Origin: a bacterium
GTDB taxonomy: Bacteria; Krumholzibacteriota; Krumholzibacteriia; LZORAL124-64-63
Assembly (NCBI GenBank): GCA_031441465.1
Contig: JANOEP010000066.1
Location: forward strand, 94,132-158,131
DNA: 64,000 bases
Reading direction: 5' to 3'
Shown: positions 8,955 through 32,577 of the stretch, in pieces
Layout: each line of letters opens with the position of its first letter
How positions within the stretch are numbered: the stretch's first letter is position 1
The notes under the pieces: generated by a model
Seen by the model: the letters and a program-made list of their open reading frames with translations, nothing else
Told to the model about the DNA's origin: nothing
Databases searched by the model: none
Translations under genes and position numbers: made by a program

Positions 8955-9973
<1,019 letters not shown>

Positions 9974-12458: not shown

Positions 12459-13850
12459 CCACCCCGAACCCGGCGCGTCGCCCGTCGCTCGGCCCGCGGG
12501 GGCGCGGCGCCGGCTCGCGACGGGTGCCGCGATCTACCTGGCGGTGCTGGCGGCCGTCGGCCTCTCGCTGCTGCGGCTGCACGCCTCGGCGTCGGCGAGC
12601 CTCGAGCGGGCGCTGGGCGAGCGGCTGCTGGGCGTCGCGACGACAGCCGCCCACCTCGTCGACGGCGACTCCCTGCAGGTCTGGGCCCTCGACCCCCAGG
12701 AGACGCTCGAGTTCGTCTGGATGCGCACGCGCCTGCAGGAAGTCCGCCGCGAGAATCGCCTGAGCGAGCTGACGCTCTGCGACCGCGAGGGCTTCGTGCT
12801 GGTCTCGGCGGCCGACCGGGTCGCCCGCGGCGACGTCGACTATTACTGGGAACTCGACCCCGCCGCCGTGGCCTCCGCGCTCGGGGGCGCGCCCGAGCCG
12901 GGGTCGCTGGTGAAGGTCGGGGACGAGTATCAGAAGAGCGCCTTCGCGCCGGTGTGGACCGCCGACGGCCGGGTCGCCGGCGTGCTGTCGGTCGACGCGG
13001 AGGCCAAGTACTTCCGCGCCCTGGGCGACCTGCGGCGCGTGGCCTGGCTCACCGTGGTCGCCGTGCTCGCCTTCCTGACGGCGATGGCCCTGGTCGTGGC
13101 GAGGCTCGAGCGCTCCCTGGCCCGCGCCCGCGCCGCCGCCCAGCGCCAAGAGACCCTGGCGGCGATGGGGCGGATGACCGCGGGGATCGCGCACGAGATC
13201 CGCAACCCCCTGGGCATCATCCGCGGGGCCGGCGAGATCCAGGCGGCCAAGCTGCGCGAGCTGGGCGTCGAACTGCCGACGGCCGATTTCATCCCCGAGG
13301 AGGTCGACCGCCTGGACCGCATCCTGACCCGCTACCTGACCTTCGGTCGCGGCGGCGCGCCGCGGCCCGAGCCGCTGGACCTCGAAGCCCTGGTGCGGCG
13401 CGTGGCCCGGTTGGCGACGGGCGAACTGGAGCGCGCGGGCGTGCGCATCGACATCGAGAACCGCGGCGTCGGCGGTCCGGTGGCGGGAGACAGTCCCGGC
13501 CTGCAGCAGGTCCTGCTGAACCTGCTGCTGAACGCGCGCGACGCGATGCCCGGCGGCGGCGTCGTCACCGTCGTGCTCGAGCCCCGCAGCGACGGCGTCG
13601 TCCTGCGCGTGCGGGACGAGGGGAGCGGCCTGGGCGGCCGCAGCCAGGACGAGCTGTTCACGCCCTTCTTCACCACGAGGCAACAGGGGAGCGGCCTCGG
13701 CCTGGCGGTGGTGCGCCAGCTCGTCCAGGAGCACGGCGGCACGATCGCCCTGCGCGACCGCGACGACGGCCCCGGCGCCGAAGCGGTCATCGTGCTGCCG
13801 CGCGGCGACACCACGGCGGACGCCGGGGGAAGCGAGCAACCGGAGGAACC

Positions 13851-20404: not shown

Positions 20405-20968
20405 ATGACCGAGCAGCCCGTCGGCATCCTGGCCCTGCAGGGCGACTTCGAACTCCACGCCGCGGCTTTGGTCCGGCAGGGAACGCCCTATCTCTTCGTA
20501 CGTCGGCCGACGGAACTGGCCGCGTGCCGTGGCCTCGTCATTCCCGGCGGCGAGAGCACGACGATGACCCGCCTGCTGGACATCGTGGGGCTGCGGCAGC
20601 CGATCCTGGACTTCGCCGCAGCCGGCAAGCCGATCCTGGGCACCTGCGCCGGGCTCATCATGTTGGCGGCGCGCGTCGACGAGGACGAGCGCAGGCACGG
20701 CGTGAAGCCATTGGGGTTGCTGGACGTGCTGGTGCGGCGCAACGGCTACGGGCGGCAGGTGGACTCGTTCGTGGACGAGGTCGTCGTCGCTGGGCGAGCC
20801 GACCCGGCGCAGGGCGTGTTCATTCGGGCGCCGAGGATTCTCGAGGTGGGGGCGGGGGTCGAGGTCGTGGCGACCTGGCGGGGGGAGACGGTGGGGGTGC
20901 GGAGCGGGAAGGTGACGGGGTTGGCGTTTCATCCGGAGGCGGGGGAGAGCGAAGCCTGGATTCAGTAA
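20405..20968 (+). CDS. pdxT: pyridoxal 5'-phosphate synthase glutaminase subunit
   Basis: Contains GILALQGDF, GESTTM and GTCAGLIM with the catalytic Cys. Confidence 0.85.
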   Translation: MTEQPVGILALQGDFELHAAALVRQGTPYLFVRRPTELAACRGLVIPGGESTTMTRLLDIVGLRQPILDFAAAGKPILGTCAGLIMLAARVDEDERRHGVKPLGLLDVLVRRNGYGRQVDSFVDEVVVAGRADPAQGVFIRAPRILEVGAGVEVVATWRGETVGVRSGKVTGLAFHPEAGESEAWIQ

Positions 20969-21025
20969 TTTCTCATCTCTGGCCAGCCGGGATTGATAAT
21001 TCCGTATCGATCGCTTTCACTTATC

Positions 21026-21034
21026 TGCTACAAT
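21026..21034 (+). promoter_or_regulatory. extended -10 element TGcTACAAT upstream of LVIVD paralog 1
   Basis: It lies in the AT-rich region 20970-21160. The block TCTGCTAcAAT..GCCATC.CTCGTG is conserved upstream of paralog 2 as well. Confidence 0.4.
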
Positions 21035-21161
21035 CATGCCATCACTCGTGTGACCCCTTGGTGGAGGACGATTTACGTCATTTGATGAACGGCCACGGCT
21101 CGCATTACTGACCTGACTTGATATTTCGGATACGGGACCCTTAGCAACAAGGGGTGCATCC

Positions 21162-23777
21162 ATGTTGGGACCATTTAGGCTCCTGTTCGCAATCGTTTGG
21201 GGAAACCGGTCCACCTGCCGCGAGATGCCGCGACGAGCATTGCCGGCACGATGGCGTGTGTGCGTGGTATCCGTTGCGACGATCCTGGGGGTATCGACCT
21301 TGCCGGGATCGGCACTGTCGGGTTGTTTCGAGTATGGCGCCACACCTCGAAGGATCGGTGTCTTTGATGTTGACATGAATCAGCGCGACATCGCCGTAGG
21401 CGGCAACTATACATATGTGGCTGACTCACAGATCGGGATCAGGATCTACGATATCAGCGACGGCCATGCGCCTCAACTCGTCAATACCTGGAATATGGTG
21501 ATGTCTCCTGAGACCATCTCGGTGGACGGTGGCTATCTATACATCGGTGGTTCGACATCCGATATTTACATTGCCAACATCGTGGATCCGGTCAACCCCA
21601 GTATAGTCGGTAGCATGGTCGGTCCAGGTGGCGGATTCACGGTATCGCAGGGGTATATGTTTTTTTACGCAGGGGATGGAGGTCTATTGATCATCGACGC
21701 AACAGATCCCACAAACCCCAAGATAGCAAGCCGTGTGGACCTGTCGTACGGCTGTATGGGCATTGCTGCTGATTACCCGTATGTCTGTGTCATGGACGGT
21801 TTCTGGTACATTAATGTCATCGATATTCATGATCCCTATAATCCAGTCACCACTTCATCTGTTGACTTGTATCAAACATGCCTCAGCTTTGATGTTCTAG
21901 GTGATCATTTATTCATAATGGAGGATAGAATCCTCAAGCGTTACAATATTTCCGATCCGTACCACCCGAGCTACAGTGGCAATGTCGATTTGTCTGTGCG
22001 AGCAAACAATGTATTGGCATACAGTTACGATAGGGCAATAGTATCTTATGGCGCGAGTTTTGGCACGTATGGCAGTATCTGGTCGATCAATTTTTCCAAT
22101 GCCGCGCCATTCATGGTCGATTGGAAGATCCCCATGGCCATGCCGGCTCTTGTCGTGCAGGCTGATAGCTCGCGAGCGGTTGTACAGGAATATTCGTCGC
22201 ACATGGCGGCGGATAGATGGAGGTCGCAAATCGCCATCGTCGACATCGACGATGATGTTGTCTCGCCGCGCCCGGGAACCGACTACATCTCGTGGACGAT
22301 ACGTGCAGACTTGGCGGTGAATGGATCTTCTGCATATGTAAATCTCGGATTTGGAATCGGATTAGTCGATGTGACTGATGCCCTCGCTCCTTTCTACGTC
22401 AGCTATATCGGCATGCCGGAGTTGTCTGCACTGGCCGTGGATGGGGCGCTGATTTATGCCGCGTGCGCAGACAGTCGGTTGTATGCGATCGATGCAGGCA
22501 GTTTCCAGGAGCCAGTAGTATTGGGCAGCATCGACCTCCCTGGCGTGCCGACTGGATTGTCAGCCGAGTGCGGTGCCGTTTATGTCGCATGTGGCGGCGA
22601 CGTCACCGTCGTGGATGTTGCAGATCCGGGGGCGATGGCGGTGACTGGTACTGTGGTGACGCCCGGTGTGGCGGCCACTCTTGTAGCAGTCGGTAGTTAT
22701 GCATATGTGGCGGACGGTGCGGCGGGCTTGCAAATCATTGATGCGTCCGTACCTCAACATCCAGAAATCATCGGCCAGGTGGCGGCCCTTGGTATTGCGA
22801 ACAAAGTCGCAGTAGCGGATTCTTGCGCGTATGTTGCAAACGGCAGAGATGGGTTGCAGATCATCAATATCGCCGACCCGCTCGATCCGTATCAAACTGG
22901 AGTGTTTGTCGAATTTACAAATGTCGCCGATATTGCTGTTTCTGATGAATATGCATACTTGGCGTGTGGCGAACATGGAGTGTACGTAGTCGACGTAACG
23001 GACCCATTGGAGCCCAAGTTCACGGGAAGAGCATGGACGCAGGGCGATGCAGTGGGGATTGTGGTTGCCAATGACGTCGTGTATTACATCGATTCTGGCG
23101 GATATATCAATATTATACCGAGGCAATGCAGCGGCAGCGTGCCGGTGATGATGGCGGCATTCATGGCTGAAGAGATCGACGGCGGATGCGGCCTAGACGA
23201 CGGGTATGCGGGCGATGCTGCACAGACAAGACAGATCCGTGTGACTTGGCGGTTCGAGGAGCCTCTGGCAAGTAGCCGCCTCAGGCTCGAGGCTGAAGCA
23301 GATGACGCAACGTGGAGCATTGCACTGGGTGCGCCATCTGATAACAGTTTACTGTGCGAGTTCTTTGTTGATGACTGTGTGCCCATGACAATGAGTGGAA
23401 GATCAATTGTCTATCGTCTCCAATACTTCCGGAATGCCGGCGGTTGGGAGGAATTGGGAGAGACGTCGGTCGAATTGCTTGATCTGGCCATGCCCGGCGC
23501 CAGGGTGCCTGCATTGTCTGTCTGTCCGAACCCCTTCAACCCGAGCACGCAGGTGTCGTACGAGATGGCGCGCCCCGGGACTGCGCGGGTGACGGTCCAC
23601 GCACTGACCGGCGCGCTGGTGCGGGTGCTGGCGGACGGGCCGCAGACCGCGGGAGCGCACTTCGCGACGTGGGACGGCCGGGATGGGCGGGGGCGCGAGA
23701 TGCCGGCAGGCGGGTACGTGGTGCGGATCGCGACGGAGGCGGGGACCGGGGCGGTCAAGGCGGTGCTGGTGAGGTAA
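21162..23777 (+). CDS. LVIVD-repeat beta-propeller protein with a C-terminal FlgD-Ig / Por-secretion-tail-like sorting domain (paralog 1)
   Basis: 871 aa. Probable start at 21225 (MPRRAL...SGC, lipoprotein-like signal). Has approximately 40-aa periodic repeats (G.Q..D.S.P..P..). Confidence 0.75.
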   Translation: MLGPFRLLFAIVWGNRSTCREMPRRALPARWRVCVVSVATILGVSTLPGSALSGCFEYGATPRRIGVFDVDMNQRDIAVGGNYTYVADSQIGIRIYDISDGHAPQLVNTWNMVMSPETISVDGGYLYIGGSTSDIYIANIVDPVNPSIVGSMVGPGGGFTVSQGYMFFYAGDGGLLIIDATDPTNPKIASRVDLSYGCMGIAADYPYVCVMDGFWYINVIDIHDPYNPVTTSSVDLYQTCLSFDVLGDHLFIMEDRILKRYNISDPYHPSYSGNVDLSVRANNVLAYSYDRAIVSYGASFGTYGSIWSINFSNAAPFMVDWKIPMAMPALVVQADSSRAVVQEYSSHMAADRWRSQIAIVDIDDDVVSPRPGTDYISWTIRADLAVNGSSAYVNLGFGIGLVDVTDALAPFYVSYIGMPELSALAVDGALIYAACADSRLYAIDAGSFQEPVVLGSIDLPGVPTGLSAECGAVYVACGGDVTVVDVADPGAMAVTGTVVTPGVAATLVAVGSYAYVADGAAGLQIIDASVPQHPEIIGQVAALGIANKVAVADSCAYVANGRDGLQIINIADPLDPYQTGVFVEFTNVADIAVSDEYAYLACGEHGVYVVDVTDPLEPKFTGRAWTQGDAVGIVVANDVVYYIDSGGYINIIPRQCSGSVPVMMAAFMAEEIDGGCGLDDGYAGDAAQTRQIRVTWRFEEPLASSRLRLEAEADDATWSIALGAPSDNSLLCEFFVDDCVPMTMSGRSIVYRLQYFRNAGGWEELGETSVELLDLAMPGARVPALSVCPNPFNPSTQVSYEMARPGTARVTVHALTGALVRVLADGPQTAGAHFATWDGRDGRGREMPAGGYVVRIATEAGTGAVKAVLVR
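23526..23777 (+). repeat. conserved 3' sorting-domain cassette (copy 1 of 3)
   Basis: About 95% nucleotide identity to 26310-26561 and 28972-29224. The sequence ccgaaccccttcaacccgagcacgcaggtgtcgtacgag... recurs. Confidence 0.7.
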
Positions 23778-23832
23778 CGGTACCTCCATCGCGCTGATTC
23801 CAGATCATTCTCTTTCGCACCGACTCCCGCTC

Positions 23833-23841
23833 TGCTAGAAT
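23833..23841 (+). promoter_or_regulatory. extended -10 element TGcTAGAAT upstream of LVIVD paralog 2
   Basis: tctgctagaatgtcgccatctctcgtg matches the conserved block seen at 21024-21050. Confidence 0.4.
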
Positions 23842-23969
23842 GTCGCCATCTCTCGTGCACAAACCCGACGGAGGGTGAGCCTCATCATCTGGCTATCGAC
23901 CGGGGATCCTATCCCAAGTCAAATGTGATGTGCCGATGACCGTGACCCTTTGCACGAGGGGGCCGGACC

Positions 23970-26561
23970 ATGCCGAAGACTCGCCACCGTTCCGACTCGG
24001 AGCATGCCAGCCCGAGGACCTCCGCCACCAAAACACCGCTGCGGGAGACGACGCTGCGGCGACGCGCCGGGCTGGCCGCCGCGTCCCTCGCCTTGGCGTG
24101 CGTGTGCGCGTCCGGATCGGCGGCGACCGCCTGCACCGATTACCGGGACCACATCCGCGGCGTCAGCAGAGTCGACACGCCGGGACTGGCCTACGACGTG
24201 GCGGTCTCCGGCCTCTACGTCTACGTCGCGGACTGGTTGGCCGGCTTGCAGGTGATCGATGTCTCGTTCCCGTACTACGCCCAGATCGTGGGCGGCATCG
24301 ACACGCCGGGTCACGCCATGGACGTCGTCATCGTGGGGGATCTCGCCTACGTCGCGAATTACGAGCTCGGCCTGCAGGTGATCGACGTCTCGGATCCGCG
24401 ACACCCCTGGCTCAAGGGCAGCGTGGACACGCCGGGGCACGCCTGGCAGACGGCCGTGTCGGGCGACCGCGCCTATGTCGCGGACGATCTGTTCGGCCTC
24501 CACGTGATCGACATCACGGACCCGGCGCACCCGCAGCTCCTGGGCAGCGTGGACACGCCGGGGCACGCCTGGGGGGTGGCCGTCGCGGGGCCTTACGCCT
24601 ACGTCGCGGACGAGAATTTCGGTGTGCAGGTGGTCGACGTCACGGACCCCGCGAGTCCGCAGATCGTCGCCTGCCTGGACACGCCCGGCCAAGCCCGAGA
24701 AGTGGTCATCGCGGGCGCCAAGGCCTACGTCGCGGACGGCGACGCGGGCCTGCAGGTGTGCGACCTCTCGGACCCCGCCGACCCGCAGATCGTCAGCGGC
24801 GTCGACCGCTTCGGCTACTGCCACGGCGTCGTCTTGACGGGAACCACGGCTCACGTCGTGTTCGATTCCTACGTGTGCACGATCGACCTGTCCGACCCCC
24901 TGGCACCCGTCGTCGAGGACGGCCAGGGGATCGCCAGCGGCGCCACCAGCATCGCTGTTTCCTGGCCCTACGCCTTCGTGGCGAACGGCAGTTCCGGGGT
25001 GTTGGCGTTGGACGTTTCGGTCCCCGGGATCATCGGGAGCGTCGAGGCGCCGGGAGAGGCCGCAGCCGTCGCGGTATCGGGCGTCCACGCCTACGTGGCG
25101 GCCAGGGATGCCGGACTGCAGGTGTTCGATGTCGCGGATCCCTACCATCCCTTGGTCGTGACCGGTCTGGACACCCCGGGATACGCGGGCGACGTGGCGA
25201 TCTCGGGCACCTGCCTGCTCGTCGCGGACGGGGATGCGGGGCTGCAGGTGGTCGACATCGCGGATCCGGGTAACCCCGTGATCGTCGGCACGCTGGAGAC
25301 GCCCGGATTCGTCGGCGGCGTGGCGGTCGAGGGGACGATCGGCTACGTCGCGGCCGGGACGATCGGGTTGCTGGTGGTCGATCTCGCCGACCGCGAGCAC
25401 CCGGCGGTCCTGGGCAGCGTGAACACGCCCGGTTTCGCCCTGGACGTCTGCGTCGGGCGGGGCTGCGCCTACGTCGCGGACAGGAATACGGGCGTGCAGA
25501 TCGTCGATGTCGCGAACCCGTCGCAACCCGTCCTGCACGGCAACCTCGACACGCTCGGCGACGCCGAGGGCCTCGCGCTGGACGCGCGCTACTGGTACGG
25601 CCGCCTCTTCATCGCCGAAGGGGATTCCGGTCTCCAGGTCTACGACGTGTCGTCCCCGCTCTATCCCTGGCTCGTCGACAGCGGCACGACTCCCGGCCCC
25701 GCCCGCCGGATCGCGATCACGTACAACCACGCCTACGTCGCTCTCGAAGACCATGGTCTCTACGTCATGGAACGATCCTCGGGCGGCCCGTTCGCGGTCG
25801 AGCAGGTCAACGTGCCGGGACTGGTCCGCGGCGTCGCGGTCTCGGGATCCTTCGTCCTGATCGCTGCCGGGCCCGCCGGGTTGGCCGTGATGCCGGTCCA
25901 GTGCGACCTGAGCGTCCCTAACCTGCTCGCTTCGTTCAACGCGGCGGTGGCCGCGGCGTCGCCGCCATCGCCTGCGGCGCCCGGGCTGCCGGGCGCGCCG
26001 CTGCAGCGGCCGCGGGCCGTCGATCTGACCTGGTCGCTCACCGCCCCCCCGGCGCCCGGGTCCCTGCGCCTCGCCGCCGAATGCGCCGGCGCGGGTTGGG
26101 ACATCCCCTTCCTGCCGGACCCCCAGGGCGCCGCCGGGATGAGCTACGTGGCCCGCGATGACTCCCCCCTGCTCGCAGGCGTGCCGCGGGCACGCTACAC
26201 GCTGCTGCACGCCGTGACCCCCGGCGCCTGGACGGCGCTGGGCGACGTGACGGTCGTGTTCGGGACTTCCGAGACGCCCGGCGCGGCCGTGCCGCAACTC
26301 CACGTGTACCCGAATCCCTTCAACCCGAGCACGCAGGTGTCGTACGAGCTGACGCGGCCCGGCGTGGCGCGGGTGACGGTCCACGCGCTGACCGGCGCGT
26401 TGGTGCGGGTGCTGGCGGACGGGCCGCAGGCCGCGGGAGCGCACTTCGCGACGTGGGACGGCCGGGACGGGCGGGGGCGCGAGATGCCGGCCGGCGGGTA
26501 CGTGGTGCGGATCGCGACGGAGGCGGGGACGGGGGCGGTGAAGGCAGTGCTGGTGCGTTGA
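23970..26561 (+). CDS. LVIVD-repeat beta-propeller protein with C-terminal sorting domain (paralog 2)
   Basis: 863 aa with tandem repeats of the GLQVIDVSDP..P...G.VDTPG.A..V.V.G..AYVA type. The C-terminal 85 aa is identical or near-identical to paralogs 1 and 3. Confidence 0.8.
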   Translation: MPKTRHRSDSEHASPRTSATKTPLRETTLRRRAGLAAASLALACVCASGSAATACTDYRDHIRGVSRVDTPGLAYDVAVSGLYVYVADWLAGLQVIDVSFPYYAQIVGGIDTPGHAMDVVIVGDLAYVANYELGLQVIDVSDPRHPWLKGSVDTPGHAWQTAVSGDRAYVADDLFGLHVIDITDPAHPQLLGSVDTPGHAWGVAVAGPYAYVADENFGVQVVDVTDPASPQIVACLDTPGQAREVVIAGAKAYVADGDAGLQVCDLSDPADPQIVSGVDRFGYCHGVVLTGTTAHVVFDSYVCTIDLSDPLAPVVEDGQGIASGATSIAVSWPYAFVANGSSGVLALDVSVPGIIGSVEAPGEAAAVAVSGVHAYVAARDAGLQVFDVADPYHPLVVTGLDTPGYAGDVAISGTCLLVADGDAGLQVVDIADPGNPVIVGTLETPGFVGGVAVEGTIGYVAAGTIGLLVVDLADREHPAVLGSVNTPGFALDVCVGRGCAYVADRNTGVQIVDVANPSQPVLHGNLDTLGDAEGLALDARYWYGRLFIAEGDSGLQVYDVSSPLYPWLVDSGTTPGPARRIAITYNHAYVALEDHGLYVMERSSGGPFAVEQVNVPGLVRGVAVSGSFVLIAAGPAGLAVMPVQCDLSVPNLLASFNAAVAAASPPSPAAPGLPGAPLQRPRAVDLTWSLTAPPAPGSLRLAAECAGAGWDIPFLPDPQGAAGMSYVARDDSPLLAGVPRARYTLLHAVTPGAWTALGDVTVVFGTSETPGAAVPQLHVYPNPFNPSTQVSYELTRPGVARVTVHALTGALVRVLADGPQAAGAHFATWDGRDGRGREMPAGGYVVRIATEAGTGAVKAVLVR
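26022..26561 (+). repeat. conserved 3' cassette (copy 2; extended homology with copy 3)
   Basis: Shares RAVDL.WSL ... MSYVARDDSPLLAG ... PNPFNPSTQVSYE... with 28675-29224. Confidence 0.65.
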
Positions 26562-26629
26562 ACGACGTCGCATTGCAGGTATGACGACGCGTGGTGCAGA
26601 TCGTTGTCACGAATCGAGGAGGCCCGGCC

Positions 26630-29224
26630 ATGACAGGATGCCCGTCGAGTCCGTTTCATTGGCACGTCCTGGCGCGGGCCAGGCGCCCGATCGCGCCGCT
26701 GCGCGGGAGGCCGGTGTGTGGCCTCGGTCTGGTGGTCGTGATCCTCTCGCTGGCCTCCAGCCTGTACGGGGTCGATTGGTGGTACTGTTTCAACTACTAC
26801 GGTTACTTGAAATGGGTGGGTAGGCTCGACACGCCTGGCAACGCCAGCGACATCGAAATCGCCGGCGGTCACGCCTACGTCGCCGATTTGTTTTCGGGAC
26901 TGCAGATCGTCGATATCACCGGACCGGAGCCGCCCCAGATCGTCAGCAGCATTCCGATCACCAACGGCGCGATGGGCGTCGCCGTCGAGGGCGACCACGC
27001 CTTCGTCGTGGACGCCGCCGCACGTCTGCATGTCGTCGACGTTACGGACCCCGCGGAACCTGAGGTCGTCAGCAGCGTGGACGTGGAGGGATCTGCGTAC
27101 GGCGTGGTCATCGCCGGTCACTACGCCTACATGGCCGCCGGTTACGCCGGAGTCCAGATCATCGACATCACGGACGTGAGCGACCCGCGGCTGGTCGCGA
27201 CCGTCAACACCCCCGTCTCCGCGATGGGCGTGACCATCTCGGGATCGTACATCTACGTTGCTGACGGCACTTCCGGCCTGCAGGTGATCGACATCACGGA
27301 TCCGGCCACGGCGCAGATCGTGGGCGGGCTGAACACGCCGGGAGAAGCTCTCAACACGGAGATCGTCGGCGCTTATGCCTACATCGCGGATTCCGGTACC
27401 GGATTGGTGGTGGCGGACATCACGATCCCCCAATCGCCGGTGATCGTCGCTGTGGTGCCCATGCCGGGGAATGCCCGGGATATGGTGTTGTCGCCAGCAT
27501 TCCTCTACGTCGGGGACTCGACGGGCCTGCATCTGGTCGACGTCACGGCACCCGGGTCTCCCGAACTCGTCGACAGCTACGGGCTCACTGATGACGTCAC
27601 GAGCGTGGCCGTGGTGGGCGATCTCGTCTTCGCCGCCGTCGATGTGCGTGGGATCGAGATCATCGAGACGACGGATCCGGTCCCCTCGGCCAGCTTGGAC
27701 CTGCCGGGAACCGCCGCTGGCGTATCCGTCCAGGGCGATTACACATACCTCGCGTGCGGCGATGCCGGATTGTGCGTGGTCGATGTCTCGAACTATCTGG
27801 ATCCCCGGTTGGTAGGCACCGGGATCGTGCCGGGGAATGCCGTCGATGTGGCAGTCGTGGGGCCGTACGCCTACGTCGCCGCCAGCGAGTCCGGCCTCCA
27901 GGTGGTCGATGTCTCCGACCCCGCGAGTCCACAGCACGTCGGCGGTGTGGACACGCCGGGTTCGGCGTGTGCGGTCGCGATCGCCGGCACCATCGCCCAT
28001 GTCGCGGACGGCGTCGGCGGTCTGCTTCTGGTCGACGTTGCGGACCCTGTTCATCCCGCCATCGTCGGCGGCGTGGACACGCCGGGCAGCGCCCAAGGTG
28101 TATACGTGTTGAATTCCCGAAACAAGACTTACGTCGCCGATGGTGTGTCGGGCGTGCAGGTCGTCGATATCGTGGATCCCGGAAACCCCGTGATCGTGGA
28201 TGTCATCGAGACGCTGGACGACGCCGTCGGCATCACCTTCACGTCGACTCACGGCATCCTCGGCTATCTCTACGTGGCTGAAGGCGTCGGCGGCATCCAG
28301 GTATTCCGCGTCATGGCCGACGGCCAGGTGACACCTCAGGCCATCGGTGGACTGGCCTCGCCGGGCGGTGCCCGGAACCTGTGCATCTCCGGACCCTACG
28401 GCTACATCGCCGAGGGTCCGGCCGGGATCCAGGTGTGCCAGTATTACCAGCAAGGTCTGCAATCCGTTCGCCTCGTCGATGAAATCGCCGAAGCGCTGGA
28501 TGTGATCGCGAACAATAGGAACGTCTATGTCGCGTGCGGCACCGCCGGATTGACTGTTCTGCCGCAACAATGCTCTGGAGAGGGAGTGCCGGTCGTGCTG
28601 TCCACATTCACCGCCGCCGTGAGCGAACCCGATGCGGGGGACTCCGAGGTCCAGGGCGCACCGCCACGACGGCCCCGGGCCGTCGATCTGGCGTGGTCGC
28701 TAGCGGAGCCGATCGATGCGATATCCTTGCGGCTGAGCGCCGAGTCGGCCGGCGATAGCTGGGACGTCTCCTTCCTGCCGGGCCCCCTCGGCGCACCCGA
28801 CATGAGCTATGTCGCCCGTGACGATTCCCCCTTGCTGGCGGGGGCGCCTTCGGTCCGCTACACGCTGCTGCACGCCGCGTCTCCCGGCGCCTGGGCGGCG
28901 CTGGGCGACGTGACGGTCGTGTTCGGGTCCTCGTCGACGCCCGGCGCGCTCGTGCCGCAGCTCCACGTGTACCCGAACCCCTTCAACCCGAGCACGCAGG
29001 TGTCGTACGAGATGGCGCGGCCCGGGACGGCGCGGGTGACAGTCCACGCGCTGACCGGCGCGCTGGTGCGGGTGCTGGCGGACGGGCCGCAGGCCGCGGG
29101 GGTTCACTACGCGGTGTGGGATGGCCGGGACGAGCGCGGGCGCGAGATGTCGGCCGGCGGGTACGTGGTGCGGATCGCGACGGAGGCGGGGACGGGGGCG
29201 GTCAAGGTGGTGCTGGTGCGCTGA
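26630..29224 (+). CDS. LVIVD-repeat beta-propeller protein with C-terminal sorting domain (paralog 3)
   Basis: ATG at 26630 after gaggagg. Has the same repeat architecture. The last about 180 aa are highly similar to paralog 2. Confidence 0.8.
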   Translation: MTGCPSSPFHWHVLARARRPIAPLRGRPVCGLGLVVVILSLASSLYGVDWWYCFNYYGYLKWVGRLDTPGNASDIEIAGGHAYVADLFSGLQIVDITGPEPPQIVSSIPITNGAMGVAVEGDHAFVVDAAARLHVVDVTDPAEPEVVSSVDVEGSAYGVVIAGHYAYMAAGYAGVQIIDITDVSDPRLVATVNTPVSAMGVTISGSYIYVADGTSGLQVIDITDPATAQIVGGLNTPGEALNTEIVGAYAYIADSGTGLVVADITIPQSPVIVAVVPMPGNARDMVLSPAFLYVGDSTGLHLVDVTAPGSPELVDSYGLTDDVTSVAVVGDLVFAAVDVRGIEIIETTDPVPSASLDLPGTAAGVSVQGDYTYLACGDAGLCVVDVSNYLDPRLVGTGIVPGNAVDVAVVGPYAYVAASESGLQVVDVSDPASPQHVGGVDTPGSACAVAIAGTIAHVADGVGGLLLVDVADPVHPAIVGGVDTPGSAQGVYVLNSRNKTYVADGVSGVQVVDIVDPGNPVIVDVIETLDDAVGITFTSTHGILGYLYVAEGVGGIQVFRVMADGQVTPQAIGGLASPGGARNLCISGPYGYIAEGPAGIQVCQYYQQGLQSVRLVDEIAEALDVIANNRNVYVACGTAGLTVLPQQCSGEGVPVVLSTFTAAVSEPDAGDSEVQGAPPRRPRAVDLAWSLAEPIDAISLRLSAESAGDSWDVSFLPGPLGAPDMSYVARDDSPLLAGAPSVRYTLLHAASPGAWAALGDVTVVFGSSSTPGALVPQLHVYPNPFNPSTQVSYEMARPGTARVTVHALTGALVRVLADGPQAAGVHYAVWDGRDERGREMSAGGYVVRIATEAGTGAVKVVLVR
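28675..29224 (+). repeat. conserved 3' cassette (copy 3)
   Basis: Same as the entry above. Confidence 0.65.
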
Positions 29225-29458: not shown

Positions 29459-31825
29459 ATGCCAAGGATGATCACGATGAAGACCCGATCGGCACCAGGG
29501 AAAGTTCCGGAGATCCGGCTGCTGCTCGTGCTCGCGACTGCGCTGGTCGCCGCGCTCGCCGGCTTCACGACCAGCGCCGGAGCCACCGGCGAGATCCTCA
29601 GTTGGGGCGGGACGGTCGTCGTCGCCCAGGATGCCTTGACTAACCTGTCGGCGGTGTCGGCGGGCGAGGGGCATAGCCTGGGTCTGAAGACCGACGGGTC
29701 GATCGTCGCCTGGGGACGCAACAACTTCGGCCAATGCACCGTGCCGGCGCCCAACGCGGGGTTCGCGGCGGTGGCGGCCGGCGGCGAGTACAGCCTGGGC
29801 CTGAAAGCCGACGGCTCCGTCGTGGTGTGGGGATCCAGCCAGGACGGTCTTCATGACGTGCCCGCGCCGAACCTGGGATTCACGGCCGTGTCGGCCGGGA
29901 TCTACCATGCGCTGGGCCTGAAGGCCGATCAGACCGTCGTGGCGTGGGGCTACAACCTTGCGCCGGGCGGCGATCCCGGCGGCCAGTGCGACGTGCCGTC
30001 TCCGAATCAGGATTTCACGGCGGTCGCCGCCGGCGGATTCCACAGCGTGGGCCTGAAGTCCGACGGGTCCGTCGTCTGTTGGGGTAACAACCGGAGCGGC
30101 CAGTGCGACGTGCCTGCGCCGAACACGGGCTTCACGGCGATCGCGGCGGGCATGGACCACAGCATGGGTCTGAAGGCCAACGGTTCCATCGTCGTGTGGG
30201 GCGACAACAGTATGGGCCAGTGGAACGTGCCGGCGCCGAACTCCGGGTTCATGGCCCTGGCGGCGAGCAGGTACGGCAGCACGGGTCTGCGGCCCAACGG
30301 CACGATCGTCGCCTGGGGCGACGACTGGGGGATGGGCCCCGCCGTGCCGTACCCGAATGCGGACTTCACGATGATCGCGACGGGATCCATGCACAAGCTG
30401 GCCCTGAAGTCCGACGGGACCGCCGTCGCCTGGGGCTCGAACGTGTTCGCCCAGTGCAACCTGCGCCCGGCGAGCCTCGGCTGCACGGAACTGGCTGCGG
30501 GGACGATGCACTGGCTGGGCCTCAAATCGAACGGATCCATCGTCGGCTGGGGTGCGAATTCCAGCGGCCAGGCCACGGCGCCCACGGTGAACACGGGTTT
30601 CACGGCGCTAGGGGCGGGACGATACCACAGCCTGGCTCTGAAGACCGATGGTTCGATCGTCGCCTGGGGTGGCAACTTCAACGACGATCTCGAATACACC
30701 GGCCAGTGCAACGTGCCGGCGCCGAACGCGGGGTTCGTGGCGATCGCCGGGGGCGGCTATTTCAGTTTGGGCGTGAAGGACGACGGCTCCGTCGTCGCAT
30801 GGGGTGACAACCGGCTCGGCCAGTGCGACGTGCCGGCGCCGAACGCCGGGTTCGCGGCGGTCGCGGCGAGCGACCGTCACAGCCTAGGCCTGATGCTCGA
30901 CGGCTCCGTCGTCGCCTGGGGGGACAACCTGCACGAACAGTGCAACGTCCCCGGATCGAACTCGGGCTTCACGGCGATCGCGGCGGGCGGCGACCACAGC
31001 CTGGGGTTGAAGGTCGACGGCTCCATCGTCGCTTGGGGAGACAACCAGTTCGGCCAGTGCGAGGTCCCCGCGCCGAACGCGGACTTCATCGCGGTGGCGG
31101 CGGGCGACATCCACAGCCTGGGCCTGAAATCCGACGGGTCGATCTTCGCGTGGGGGAGCCACGGATCCGGTCGGTGCGACGTGCCCGCGCCTAACGCGGG
31201 TTTCACGGCGATCGCGGCGCGTGGCGACGTCAGCCTGGGGATCCGCAGCCTCGTGCCGCAATCCGTCCAGCTGACCCGGTTTGACGTCGAGCGCCGCGGC
31301 GGCCGGGCGACGGTCCGCTGGGCGATGTCCCGGCCGCTCGACCACGCCGGCTTCCATCTCTGGCGGCAGGAGCCCGGCAGCGACCGTGTTCGTCTGAGCC
31401 AGATGCTGTTGATCGGTGAGAACACCTACGACTTCATCGACCGGTCACCGCCGAGGGGAAAGGCGGAATATTGGCTGCAGGAAGTGACGACCGACGGTTC
31501 GGAGAACTGGTACGGCCCCGCGCTCCTGGAGGCAGCCCCGATTCCGACTTCCTTGCATTTGGCCCAGAATCGTCCCAACCCTTTCAATCCAAGCACATCG
31601 TTCAACTTCGAGCTCCCAAAACCTGGCCGCGCCGTACTGGTGATCTACGACGTGCGGGGCGCACGTGTCGCAACATTGGTCGATGCCGGCGTGTCCGCCG
31701 GTGAGCAAAGCATGGAATGGGGCGGCCTCGATGACGGCGGTGTCCCGATGCCTTCGGGGATCTACTTCGCGCGGCTGGAGGCGGAGGATGGTATTCGGAC
31801 GATCAAGGTGACTCTGGCGCGATAA
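29459..31825 (+). CDS. RCC1-repeat (alpha-tubulin-suppressor-like) beta-propeller protein with C-terminal FlgD-Ig / Por-tail-like domain
   Basis: 788 aa with about 13 tandem repeats of HSLGLK.DGS.V.WG.N..GQC.VP.PN. The C-terminus is RPNPFNPSTSFNFELPKPGRAVLVIYDVRGARVATL...GIYFARLEAEDGIRTIKVTLAR. Confidence 0.8.
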   Translation: MPRMITMKTRSAPGKVPEIRLLLVLATALVAALAGFTTSAGATGEILSWGGTVVVAQDALTNLSAVSAGEGHSLGLKTDGSIVAWGRNNFGQCTVPAPNAGFAAVAAGGEYSLGLKADGSVVVWGSSQDGLHDVPAPNLGFTAVSAGIYHALGLKADQTVVAWGYNLAPGGDPGGQCDVPSPNQDFTAVAAGGFHSVGLKSDGSVVCWGNNRSGQCDVPAPNTGFTAIAAGMDHSMGLKANGSIVVWGDNSMGQWNVPAPNSGFMALAASRYGSTGLRPNGTIVAWGDDWGMGPAVPYPNADFTMIATGSMHKLALKSDGTAVAWGSNVFAQCNLRPASLGCTELAAGTMHWLGLKSNGSIVGWGANSSGQATAPTVNTGFTALGAGRYHSLALKTDGSIVAWGGNFNDDLEYTGQCNVPAPNAGFVAIAGGGYFSLGVKDDGSVVAWGDNRLGQCDVPAPNAGFAAVAASDRHSLGLMLDGSVVAWGDNLHEQCNVPGSNSGFTAIAAGGDHSLGLKVDGSIVAWGDNQFGQCEVPAPNADFIAVAAGDIHSLGLKSDGSIFAWGSHGSGRCDVPAPNAGFTAIAARGDVSLGIRSLVPQSVQLTRFDVERRGGRATVRWAMSRPLDHAGFHLWRQEPGSDRVRLSQMLLIGENTYDFIDRSPPRGKAEYWLQEVTTDGSENWYGPALLEAAPIPTSLHLAQNRPNPFNPSTSFNFELPKPGRAVLVIYDVRGARVATLVDAGVSAGEQSMEWGGLDDGGVPMPSGIYFARLEAEDGIRTIKVTLAR

Positions 31826-32191: not shown

Positions 32192-32358
32192 GGGAGCCTC
32201 CCGTCTCGCTCCGGATCCGGGGCGTGACTGCCAGCGAACCTGGTCACGGTAACGGAATCCTCGAACACGCGCCAAGCCTCTTCGTTCCGGCCCGGCAGCA
32301 GGAGAATCGCGCTGGCGCCCCCCGCCCCCCTCCGCTAGGATCCCCCCGGAGGTACCCC

Positions 32359-32577
32359 ATGTTCCTGAAACTCCTGCTCTGGCTGCTGCTGTTCGTGCTG
32401 TGCTGGCCGCTGGCCATCCTGGCGCTGATCTTCTTCCCGCTGATCTGGTTGCTGCTGCTGCCGTTCAAGATCCTGGGCATCGCGGTCACCGGCGTGCTGG
32501 AACTGTTCAAGGCGATCATCATGCTGCCGGCCAGGGTGCTGGGCGGACGTCCCGGCGCCAAGCCGAAGCGCCCCTGA
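32359..32577 (+). CDS. hypothetical small hydrophobic protein (72 aa, 2 TM)
   Basis: ATG at 32359 after ggagg. Sequence is MFLKLLLWLLLFVLCWPLAILALIFFPLIWLLLLPFKILGIAVTGVLELFKAIIMLPARVLGGRPGAKPKRP. Confidence 0.45.
   Translation: MFLKLLLWLLLFVLCWPLAILALIFFPLIWLLLLPFKILGIAVTGVLELFKAIIMLPARVLGGRPGAKPKRP

Follow-up and report, generated by a model that had tools for sequence, protein, structure and literature searches.

The 64-kb stretch of DNA analysed here (the window, on which all positions are counted) codes for a series of propeller proteins downstream of the genes proS, pdxS and pdxT: three with LVIVD repeats (paralogs 1, 2 and 3) and one with RCC1 repeats (Table 1). The window ProRS is 73% identical to proteins of metagenome-assembled genomes (MAGs) of Krumholzibacteria, no more than a hint at its taxonomy. 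The upstream leader of paralog 1 and the first 788 codons of its open reading frame (ORF) form a block of low GC, which ends where a C-terminal cassette common to the three paralogs begins. This cassette is a FlgD Ig-like domain that resembles the sorting domains of the type IX secretion system (T9SS). The explanation that we favour, with moderate confidence, is that the block is an exchangeable leader-body module of a resident, strain-variable surface propeller gene, lodged in a hypervariable slot downstream of proS-pdxS-pdxT.

Table 1. Position of the features treated in the text (aa, amino acids; GC3, GC content of third codon positions; AF2, AlphaFold2; L numbers are loci of relatives)
Feature	Position	Strand	Basis and remarks
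pdxT, SNO glutamine amidotransferase	20405..20968	+	Pfam SNO, E = 7e-47; conserved, proposed left anchor
Low-GC leader of paralog 1, GC 0.50	20969..21161	+	Homologous in L001, L002/L018, L024, and upstream of paralog 2
Paralog 1 ORF, 871 aa	21162..23777	+	ORF list, translation, Pfam LVIVD and FlgD_ig
Propeller body, aa ~60-655, 14 predicted four-stranded blades, degenerate LVIVD repeats	21339..23126	+	AF2 model, Foldseek, Pfam
Beta-sandwich linker domain, aa ~660-788, GC3 0.48-0.72	23139..23525	+	AF2 strands at aa 664-771
High-GC C-terminal cassette, 83 aa, FlgD Ig-like/T9SS-type sorting domain	23526..23774	+	GC 0.75, GC3 0.94; proposed right anchor, gene-conversion tract
Leader of paralog 2, GC 0.58	23778..23969	+	Homologous to paralog 1 leader; TTCGCA-16-TAGAAT with upstream TG
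Paralog 2, high-GC LVIVD propeller, GC3 0.90, cassette at 26310-26558	23970..26561	+	Pfam LVIVD, 321 bits, 9 stretches
Paralog 3, high-GC LVIVD propeller, GC3 0.82, cassette at 28973-29221	26591..29224	+	Pfam
RCC1-repeat propeller, more distant FlgD_ig tail, last gene of the islet	29459..31825	+	Pfam RCC1_2, 305 bits
72-aa membrane-protein gene, right border of the slot	32359..32577	+	tblastn, 93-96% identity to L001/L002 products

Composition and product of paralog 1

The GC content is 0.532 between 20969 and 23525, against 0.714 across the rest of the window. The lowest 2557-bp GC window of the 64 kb sits here (minimum at 20951), 8.1 standard deviations under all non-overlapping windows of the same size, and 300-bp windows have a GC content of 0.41-0.61 within the block and of 0.65-0.78 beyond it. 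The GC of the pdxT stretch stays at 0.69-0.75 until about 20940. A two-change-point likelihood fit places the left border at 20952 (interval of two log-likelihood units 20919-20967; log-likelihood gain 110) and the right border at 23484 (interval 23430-23568). The abrupt block described from the letters in the original prediction, at about 20970-23520, is thus confirmed: the profile is not smooth and its borders are sharp.

The block is made of the 193-bp leader and the first 788 codons of the ORF, hereafter the body. GC3 of the body is 0.572 while it averages 0.928 ± 0.031 in the other 38 ORFs of the window, which served as codon reference (z = -11.3). Per 50 codons it stays at 0.38-0.72 over the whole body, and it steps up to 0.90-0.94 in the final 83 codons (0.93-0.94 over the last 249-252 nt). 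Synonymous codon choice in the body is inverted relative to the other ORFs, with over-use of TAT (0.58 against 0.07), GAT (0.60 against 0.12) and GCA (0.36 against 0.02). The amino acid composition is also somewhat AT-shifted, the share of Phe, Tyr, Met, Ile, Asn and Lys (FYMINK) being 0.22 in paralog 1 and 0.12-0.14 in paralogs 2 and 3. A strand-specific origin by deamination or hypermutation was dropped, as T and A are near equal at third positions of the body (GGT 0.25 and GGA 0.24; GTT 0.15 and GTA 0.17).

A pattern of this kind might be an artefact: sequences of different sources could have been joined in assembly or binning, or a repeat protein with much Tyr, Ile and Asp could by itself lower the GC. 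The protein is indeed repeat-rich and a MAG is the probable source of the window, but the probability of such an artefact is negligible. Since the GC deficit is synonymous, amino acid bias cannot account for the block, and the deficit is also present in the non-coding leader. Two relatives, L001 and L002, carry a paralog 1 ortholog directly after pdxS-pdxT, and in both the GC is low over the same block and rises again in the tail. Both loci were recovered identically in second independent assemblies (L017 for L001, L018 for L002), which excludes an assembly chimera. The junctions are the same in these four assemblies, obtained from different samples, and the reading frame of the window is unbroken across 23526.

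The product of paralog 1 matches PF08309 (LVIVD) with 92.7 bits (gathering score 20.2) in three stretches, and PF13860 (FlgD_ig) with 34.5 bits (cut-off 27) at aa 802-859. Its amino terminus, as read from the translation, has a basic stretch, a hydrophobic stretch and then a lipobox-like LSGC whose Cys55 is coded by positions 21324-21326. The protein is probably a surface lipoprotein or a T9SS-type cargo, its location at the surface being a prediction from sequence. In the AF2 model (predicted local distance difference test score 77.7) aa 1-53 are disordered. The model predicts 56 strands building 14 four-stranded blades, a tandem double propeller that spans aa 63-653, followed by a beta-sandwich (aa 664-771) and an Ig-like C-terminal domain (aa 786-869). 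The best Foldseek matches of the model are tandem double propellers. Paralogs 2 and 3 have this beta-sandwich domain in collinear position, the alignment with them running to aa 787.

In proteins predicted to lie at the cell surface, LVIVD repeats of ~42 aa fold into the blades of propellers (PF08309; Adindla et al. 2004, PMC2447325). Paralog 1 shares these repeats but is a degenerate member of the family, with 3 recognisable stretches against 9 in paralog 2 and 63 database matches against more than 1780 for paralog 2 (the latter at E ≤ 1e-20). Only two proteins among 5.8 billion clusters come close to it, the orthologs P0001 (88%) of L001 and P0002 (72%) of L002; beyond them the best match is 30% identical. 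Exact-protein look-ups returned no record for paralog 1 nor for P0192, a further LVIVD protein that is 49% identical to paralog 2.

The ORF is intact in the three alleles found (window, L001 and L002) and in L002 it is open from the same start codon. Translation from this start adds 21 codons (21162-21224) ahead of the Met that begins a typical signal peptide, MPRRALPARW..., and the extension is open in both allele classes (MLGPFRLLFAIVWGNRSTCRE and MLGPLRILIVFVWRIRSSCLR). No DNA-level tandem repeat was found in paralog 1, unlike in paralogs 2 and 3. Such repeats are kept in paralog 2 (24217-24788) and in the RCC1 gene (29979-31240), with periods of 126 and 117 nt and 71-77% matches. Duplication or homogenisation of blades may be recent in the high-GC genes only.

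The intergenic DNA upstream of paralog 1 is, as stated in the original prediction, equally low in GC; it is the lowest among the short intergenic regions of the window (0.58-0.78 in the others). Its reading as a flank imported with the gene does not hold, as it appears to be a conserved promoter and leader that is also present before paralog 2 and before another gene in the relative L024. The paralog 1 leader features a promoter-like extended -10 element, TGCTACAAT, at 21026-21034, which would place the start of transcription ~7 nt past 21034. It also has a conserved block, CATCACTCGTG, and, at 21149-21154, the sequence AAGGGG, which is Shine-Dalgarno-like. A GGGG-containing element of the latter type stands 7 nt ahead of the ATG in both paralogs 1 and 2. 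A 21-base motif (TGCTAnAAT ... CATCnCTCGTG) is found exactly twice in the window (21026-21050 and 23833-23857; 0 expected), at the same offset upstream of the two paralogs, and the L001 copy lies at 9865-9889. Local alignment of the two leaders gives z = 5.8 at that same offset, and a promoter scan picks up the paralog 2 copy of the extended -10-like element. L024, which has no paralog 1, carries a homologous leader of about 190 nt (~13166-13356) ahead of an RCC1-type gene.

The leaders of the window, L001, L002 and L024 are 58-66% identical, except for the pair window-L001 (96%), and their GC is 0.46-0.52 throughout, over three haplotypes that are 34-42% divergent. The elements listed are putative promoter and Shine-Dalgarno signals, and the leader may be a regulatory element common to these surface-protein genes. 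A riboswitch-like reading was dropped. The Rfam search of the leader gave no family (a single chance snoRNA match, E = 0.69, lies inside the ORF), and RNAalifold on five leaders yielded -11 kcal/mol without covariation support and no convincing conserved fold.

The cassette junction and the alleles of the module

The return of GC was predicted to coincide with the start of the cassette, and this boundary to be a candidate recombination junction. Separate comparison of body and cassette agrees with both. Nucleotide similarity of paralog 1 to paralogs 2 and 3 is restricted to 23526-23771 (93.5% and 92.3%, respectively, over 246 bp), none being detectable upstream of 23526, so that similarity between paralogs and the GC3 step begin at the same position. 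The bodies of paralog 1 and of paralogs 2 and 3 are only ~26% identical at the amino acid level. In a matrix of the 249-nt cassettes, from which the L017 and L018 rows were excluded, paralogs within a genome are 91-93% identical and orthologs between genomes 90-93% (whole range 88.8-93.2%). Because paralog cassettes are as alike as ortholog cassettes and the tract has an abrupt border, the tail evolves in concert with the tails of the paralogs, with a conversion-tract border at 23526. The cassettes of paralogs 1 and 2 of the window share derived sites, FATWDG where the orthologs have FAAWDG.

The same cassette, at 92% amino acid identity, ends P0192; every other tail found is at most 49% identical. 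Paralogs 2 and 3 and the RCC1 gene each end in a FlgD_ig tail. Scores against TIGR04183 (Por_Secre_tail; cut-off 23 bits) are 16.5 for paralog 1, 21.4 for paralog 2, 24.8 for paralog 3 and 26.8 for the RCC1 gene tail, although the paralog 3 cassette is nearly identical to the tails of paralogs 1 and 2. PorU and PorZ matches in the window are to the C-terminal tails of those families only. At the DNA level the cassettes are three direct repeats (23492-23771, 26276-26555 and 28939-29218) spaced by 2.7-2.8 kb, 88-93% identical and with exact runs of 38-47 nt. Such repeats are suited to unequal crossing-over, by which entire propeller genes could be gained or lost; paralogs 2 and 3 are missing from L001 and L002.

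L001 and L002 share 95.2% identity along 9.5 kb of flank, where each of them is 91% identical to the window. In the body, window and L001 are 90.9% identical while L002 is ~75% identical to each of them (L001-L002 74.9%), and its leader is ~70% identical to those of window and L001 (L001-L002 69%). Dense mismatches between L001 and L002 start at 20968, in the stop codon of pdxT, and end at 23525. A divergence so exactly bounded between flanks that are 95% identical identifies both borders as recombination junctions. At 23526, which is the same junction in L001 and L002, identity between paralogs begins where the block of allele divergence ends. Most simply, a divergent and functional leader-body allele would have been swapped by recombination, one crossover falling in pdxT and the other in the cassette. 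Faster evolution of the L002 lineage alone is less likely: it would fit the distances but leave unexplained the sharp edges and the equal rise at synonymous, non-synonymous and leader sites. The divergence between window and L001 is itself patchy along the gene, with synonymous divergence (dS) of 0.06-0.50, which suggests further intragenic exchange between these two alleles. The searched collections hold only three body haplotypes (window, L001 and L002), two of them close.

The dS of the body to L002 is 0.80-0.85, against 0.07-0.33 in proS, pdxS and pdxT. The ratio of non-synonymous to synonymous divergence (dN/dS) of the body is 0.22-0.31, and its highest value in any 100-codon window of the gene is 0.75. 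This low ratio shows that both alleles are functional and under purifying selection. It bears on the idea of a decaying gene, in which selection on paralog 1, as a redundant duplicate, would be relaxed and the sequence would drift to AT on its way to a pseudogene. The degenerate LVIVD repeats (three stretches against nine) and the raised FYMINK share would agree with decay. The ratio is, however, near that of the flanking housekeeping genes (0.06-0.29), 871 codons stay open at ~53% GC in three alleles, the predicted 14-blade fold is confident, and paralog 1 is the sole LVIVD gene at the locus in L001 and L002. Decay is thus largely refuted and very improbable.

In the explanation that we favour, a conserved anchor that recombines would stand on each side of the module, the 3' end of pdxT on the left and the 250-bp C-terminal cassette on the right. 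Related genomes would trade divergent alleles of the complete module via homologous recombination in these anchors, while gene conversion would keep the cassette near-identical to those of the neighbouring paralogs. Together, anchor recombination and cassette conversion would give a single ORF with two histories and a GC3 step from 0.57 to 0.94 at 23526.

Origin and persistence of the low GC

The gene was originally predicted to be a mosaic, with a foreign or ancient-divergent propeller body joined to a resident high-GC sorting cassette. Its two parts do have different histories, and of the two descriptions of the body 'ancient-divergent' fits better than 'foreign'. Over aa 16-787 the body aligns collinearly with paralogs 2 and 3 (202 and 201 bits), ahead of the best database protein beyond the orthologs (169 bits). 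This collinearity, which includes the post-propeller sandwich, and the leader shared with paralog 2 argue that paralog 1 belongs to a resident gene family rather than being an unrelated body fused to a resident tail.

A fairly recent import of leader and body from a donor of ~50% GC, fused to a resident tail after pdxT and now slowly ameliorating, is the classical account of such a block, and we consider it unlikely. Atypical GC3 and codon choice, abrupt borders, and a gene degenerate relative to the LVIVD consensus speak for it, as does the slot, whose content differs between close relatives and is often of reduced GC (0.57-0.67 in L024, 0.42-0.50 in L029). The collinear architecture and the leader shared with paralog 2 speak against it, and no donor was found among the 5.8 billion clusters. 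In GTDB representative genomes and metagenome contigs, the orthologous loci already known were the closest matches of a donor search, and a GTDB scan with the ortholog alignment found only distant LVIVD proteins (≤31% identity). The body has no match in the phage search, and plasmid matches are ≤28% identical. The window has no tRNA gene and no att-like flanking repeats, its long direct repeats being the cassettes and internal blades only. No mobility genes were noticed, though no systematic screen for integrase or transposase genes was made. Two of the traits of genomic islands are thus found here, composition with sharp borders and patchy presence; mobility signatures or a donor, and amelioration, are not. 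A diversity-generating retroelement or a donor cassette was rejected as well, as there is no further copy of the body in the 20.7-32.6 kb region.

Recent import would also predict a drift toward the genome GC. Third-position changes were polarised by parsimony. In the flanks the window served as outgroup for changes on the branches of L001 and L002; in the body L002, at dS ~0.8, served as outgroup for changes on those of window and L001. In the flanks 88 of 4242 GC sites changed to AT and 23 of 81 AT sites to GC, giving an equilibrium GC3 (GC3*) of 0.93-0.94 for an observed GC3 of 0.938. The corresponding counts in the body are 43 of 612 and 29 of 346, giving a GC3* of 0.50-0.57 for an observed 0.57. 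Per site, AT→GC exceeds GC→AT by a factor of 13.7 in the flanks, against 1.19 in the body (Fisher p = 6e-6 and 8e-10). AT→GC accounts for 40% of the body changes between G/C and A/T, where the flank regime would give 89%; a body under that regime is ruled out even at 35% mispolarisation (p = 4e-4). Third positions are the informative ones, since polarised counts over all sites are ambiguous (equilibrium GC ~0.5 in body and flanks alike). The body shows no amelioration toward the genome GC. Its GC3 is 0.565-0.580 in all three alleles, and the two alleles at dS 0.8 have the same junctions and the same GC3, which together with a substitution spectrum free of AT→GC excess weighs further against recent import. 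Low GC is a stable property of the module between its high-GC flanks, whether it arises from in-situ mutation or from the allele pool.

The low GC would then be old and stable in the module, with body and flanks each at their own equilibrium. A GC-favouring force, GC-biased gene conversion or selection for GC, would act where homologous DNA recombines, that is in core genes and cassette. It would be weak within the hyper-divergent body and leader, which would sit near an AT-biased mutational equilibrium. This is the most economical cause that we can propose for the differing substitution regimes, its biased-gene-conversion step being hypothetical. The short intergenic regions elsewhere in the window are GC-rich (0.63-0.78), so that codon selection is unlikely to be the sole force. 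A model in which GC-biased gene conversion sets bacterial GC3 was reportedly put forward by Lassalle et al. in 2015. The locus resembles it, with recombining or converting cassette and flanks at GC3 0.93-0.95 and a hyper-divergent module at 0.57 between them; this is a resemblance only, drawn from three haplotypes.

Several points weigh against the explanation of an exchangeable resident module with a stable low GC. Divergence alone does not predict low GC, as the RCC1 gene and paralogs 2 and 3 are likewise strain-specific and divergent while their GC3 remains 0.82-0.90. The polarisation rests on three haplotypes, an outgroup at dS ~0.8 and ~70 informative changes. Many of the body 'substitutions' may be imports from other low-GC alleles, in which case the test describes the allele pool and not mutation in situ. 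A relative of lower GC may have supplied the module in the first place, before its alleles diverged. The dinucleotide signature is uninformative, delta* being 0.159 for the body and 0.123-0.147 for paralogs 2 and 3, from which the body is not separated. Finally, dN/dS below 1 gives no direct sign of diversifying selection.

The AT-richness might itself be selected, for binding of a nucleoid-associated silencer or regulator, for slowed translation of a secreted propeller, or as a barrier against homogenisation with paralogs 2 and 3. Low GC3 that is stable across alleles at dS 0.8, low GC that persists in three very divergent leaders, a body at its own substitution equilibrium, and gene conversion that acts on the adjoining cassette yet stops at 23526 are all consistent with this. 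We nevertheless regard it as improbable, to about the same degree as recent import: neither a silencer nor an effect on expression has direct evidence behind it, codon usage is ordinary in paralogs 2 and 3, whose proteins are of the same kind, and a neutral equilibrium gives the same pattern. If the barrier version were true, AT-rich recoding would stop paralogs 2 and 3 from overwriting paralog 1, and leader and tail would be the constant ends between which the bodies of surface propellers are swapped.

A bolder and quite tentative extension of the module explanation is that the locus is a compositionally insulated compartment, in which the substitution regime changes more than 10-fold inside one ORF at a conversion border, corresponding to a population-scaled bias B of about 2.4. 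If GC-biased gene conversion acts on the anchors and not on the body, the gene would be a within-gene natural experiment. Conversion bias, and not mutation bias or codon selection, would then set the 93% GC3 of this uncultured phylum. The case is clean in that one frame holds segments with GC3 of 0.57 and 0.94 whose step falls at a mapped conversion/recombination border. With population data it would offer a direct test of what maintains very high bacterial GC and of why some atypical genes never ameliorate.

Divergent alleles of T9SS surface proteins of Porphyromonas gingivalis are exchanged by homologous recombination or gene conversion, with domains shared among paralogs, and negative frequency-dependent selection has been proposed for them (Dashper et al. 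2017, PMC5266723). The likeness to paralog 1 lies in the C-terminal sorting domain of a predicted surface protein, in allele exchange and in the paralog-shared domain. The differences are an uncultured lineage of ~71% GC and a body that is 18 GC points off its genome and 37 GC3 points off its own tail; no host or immune context is known here. The accessory genome of bacteria is AT-richer than the core (Bohlin et al. 2017, PMC5303225), and transferred genes show codon-usage mismatch and amelioration (Callens et al. 2021, PMC8461475). Paralog 1 is like such accessory genes in being strain-variable and lower in GC, with codon usage atypical for the surrounding core, and unlike them in that the extreme contrast lies inside a single ORF and in that the expected amelioration signal was tested and is absent. 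AT-richer variable surface-protein genes shuffled by recombination are a known pattern, found here in a poorly known uncultured lineage of the FCB group; the sharp GC3 step within an ORF and the lack of amelioration are its unusual features. For annotation, a low-GC block in a high-GC MAG is not always a recent foreign insertion or a chimera.

Contents of the slot among relatives

The proS-pdxT segment is 93.6-95.3% identical among window, L001, L002 and L024, and the slot that follows it has at least six different contents among relatives, at a conserved insertion point. The window holds paralogs 1, 2 and 3 and the RCC1 gene. L001 and L002, at a ProRS dN of ~0.035 to the window, hold paralog 1 and a gene for an unknown 422-aa protein, and L024 (ProRS 96% identical) the homologous leader followed by an RCC1-type gene only. 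Fic/HNH/HIT genes occupy the slot of L025 (ProRS 79%), a gene with a ScoMcrA-type domain that of L026-L028 (83%), HIT/HNH genes that of the contig that carries P0067 (83%), and GT2 and Wzy genes followed by a 1.5-kb ORF-poor stretch of 42-50% GC that of L029 (81%). On the right, synteny of the window with the relatives picks up at ~32302-32308, and in L001 and L002 at the 72-aa membrane-protein gene.

The secreted-looking 422-aa protein of L001 (12613-13881) and L002 (12388-13655) has no Pfam or NCBIfam match. Its gene, absent from the window, starts in overlap with the stop codon of paralog 1. In L002 it is called as two pieces of 104 and 317 aa, possibly due to a frameshift or an in-frame stop. 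The ORF-poor stretch of L029 (8104-9631), with no ORF of 80 aa or more, lies in a contig of 68-79% GC; its candidacy as a relative of paralog 1 was rejected, as the two are unrelated in comparison.

The RCC1-type genes of L024 (13626-15821, with a reduced GC of 0.57-0.67) and of the window are 61% identical in amino acids and ~69% in nucleotides, between flanks that are 88-89% identical in nucleotides. L024 also has an insertion of ~1.1 kb (1025-2131, between window positions ~9918 and ~9958) with a GC of 0.52-0.59 and a 224-aa ORF without Pfam match, which makes two small islets of low GC in this group of genomes.

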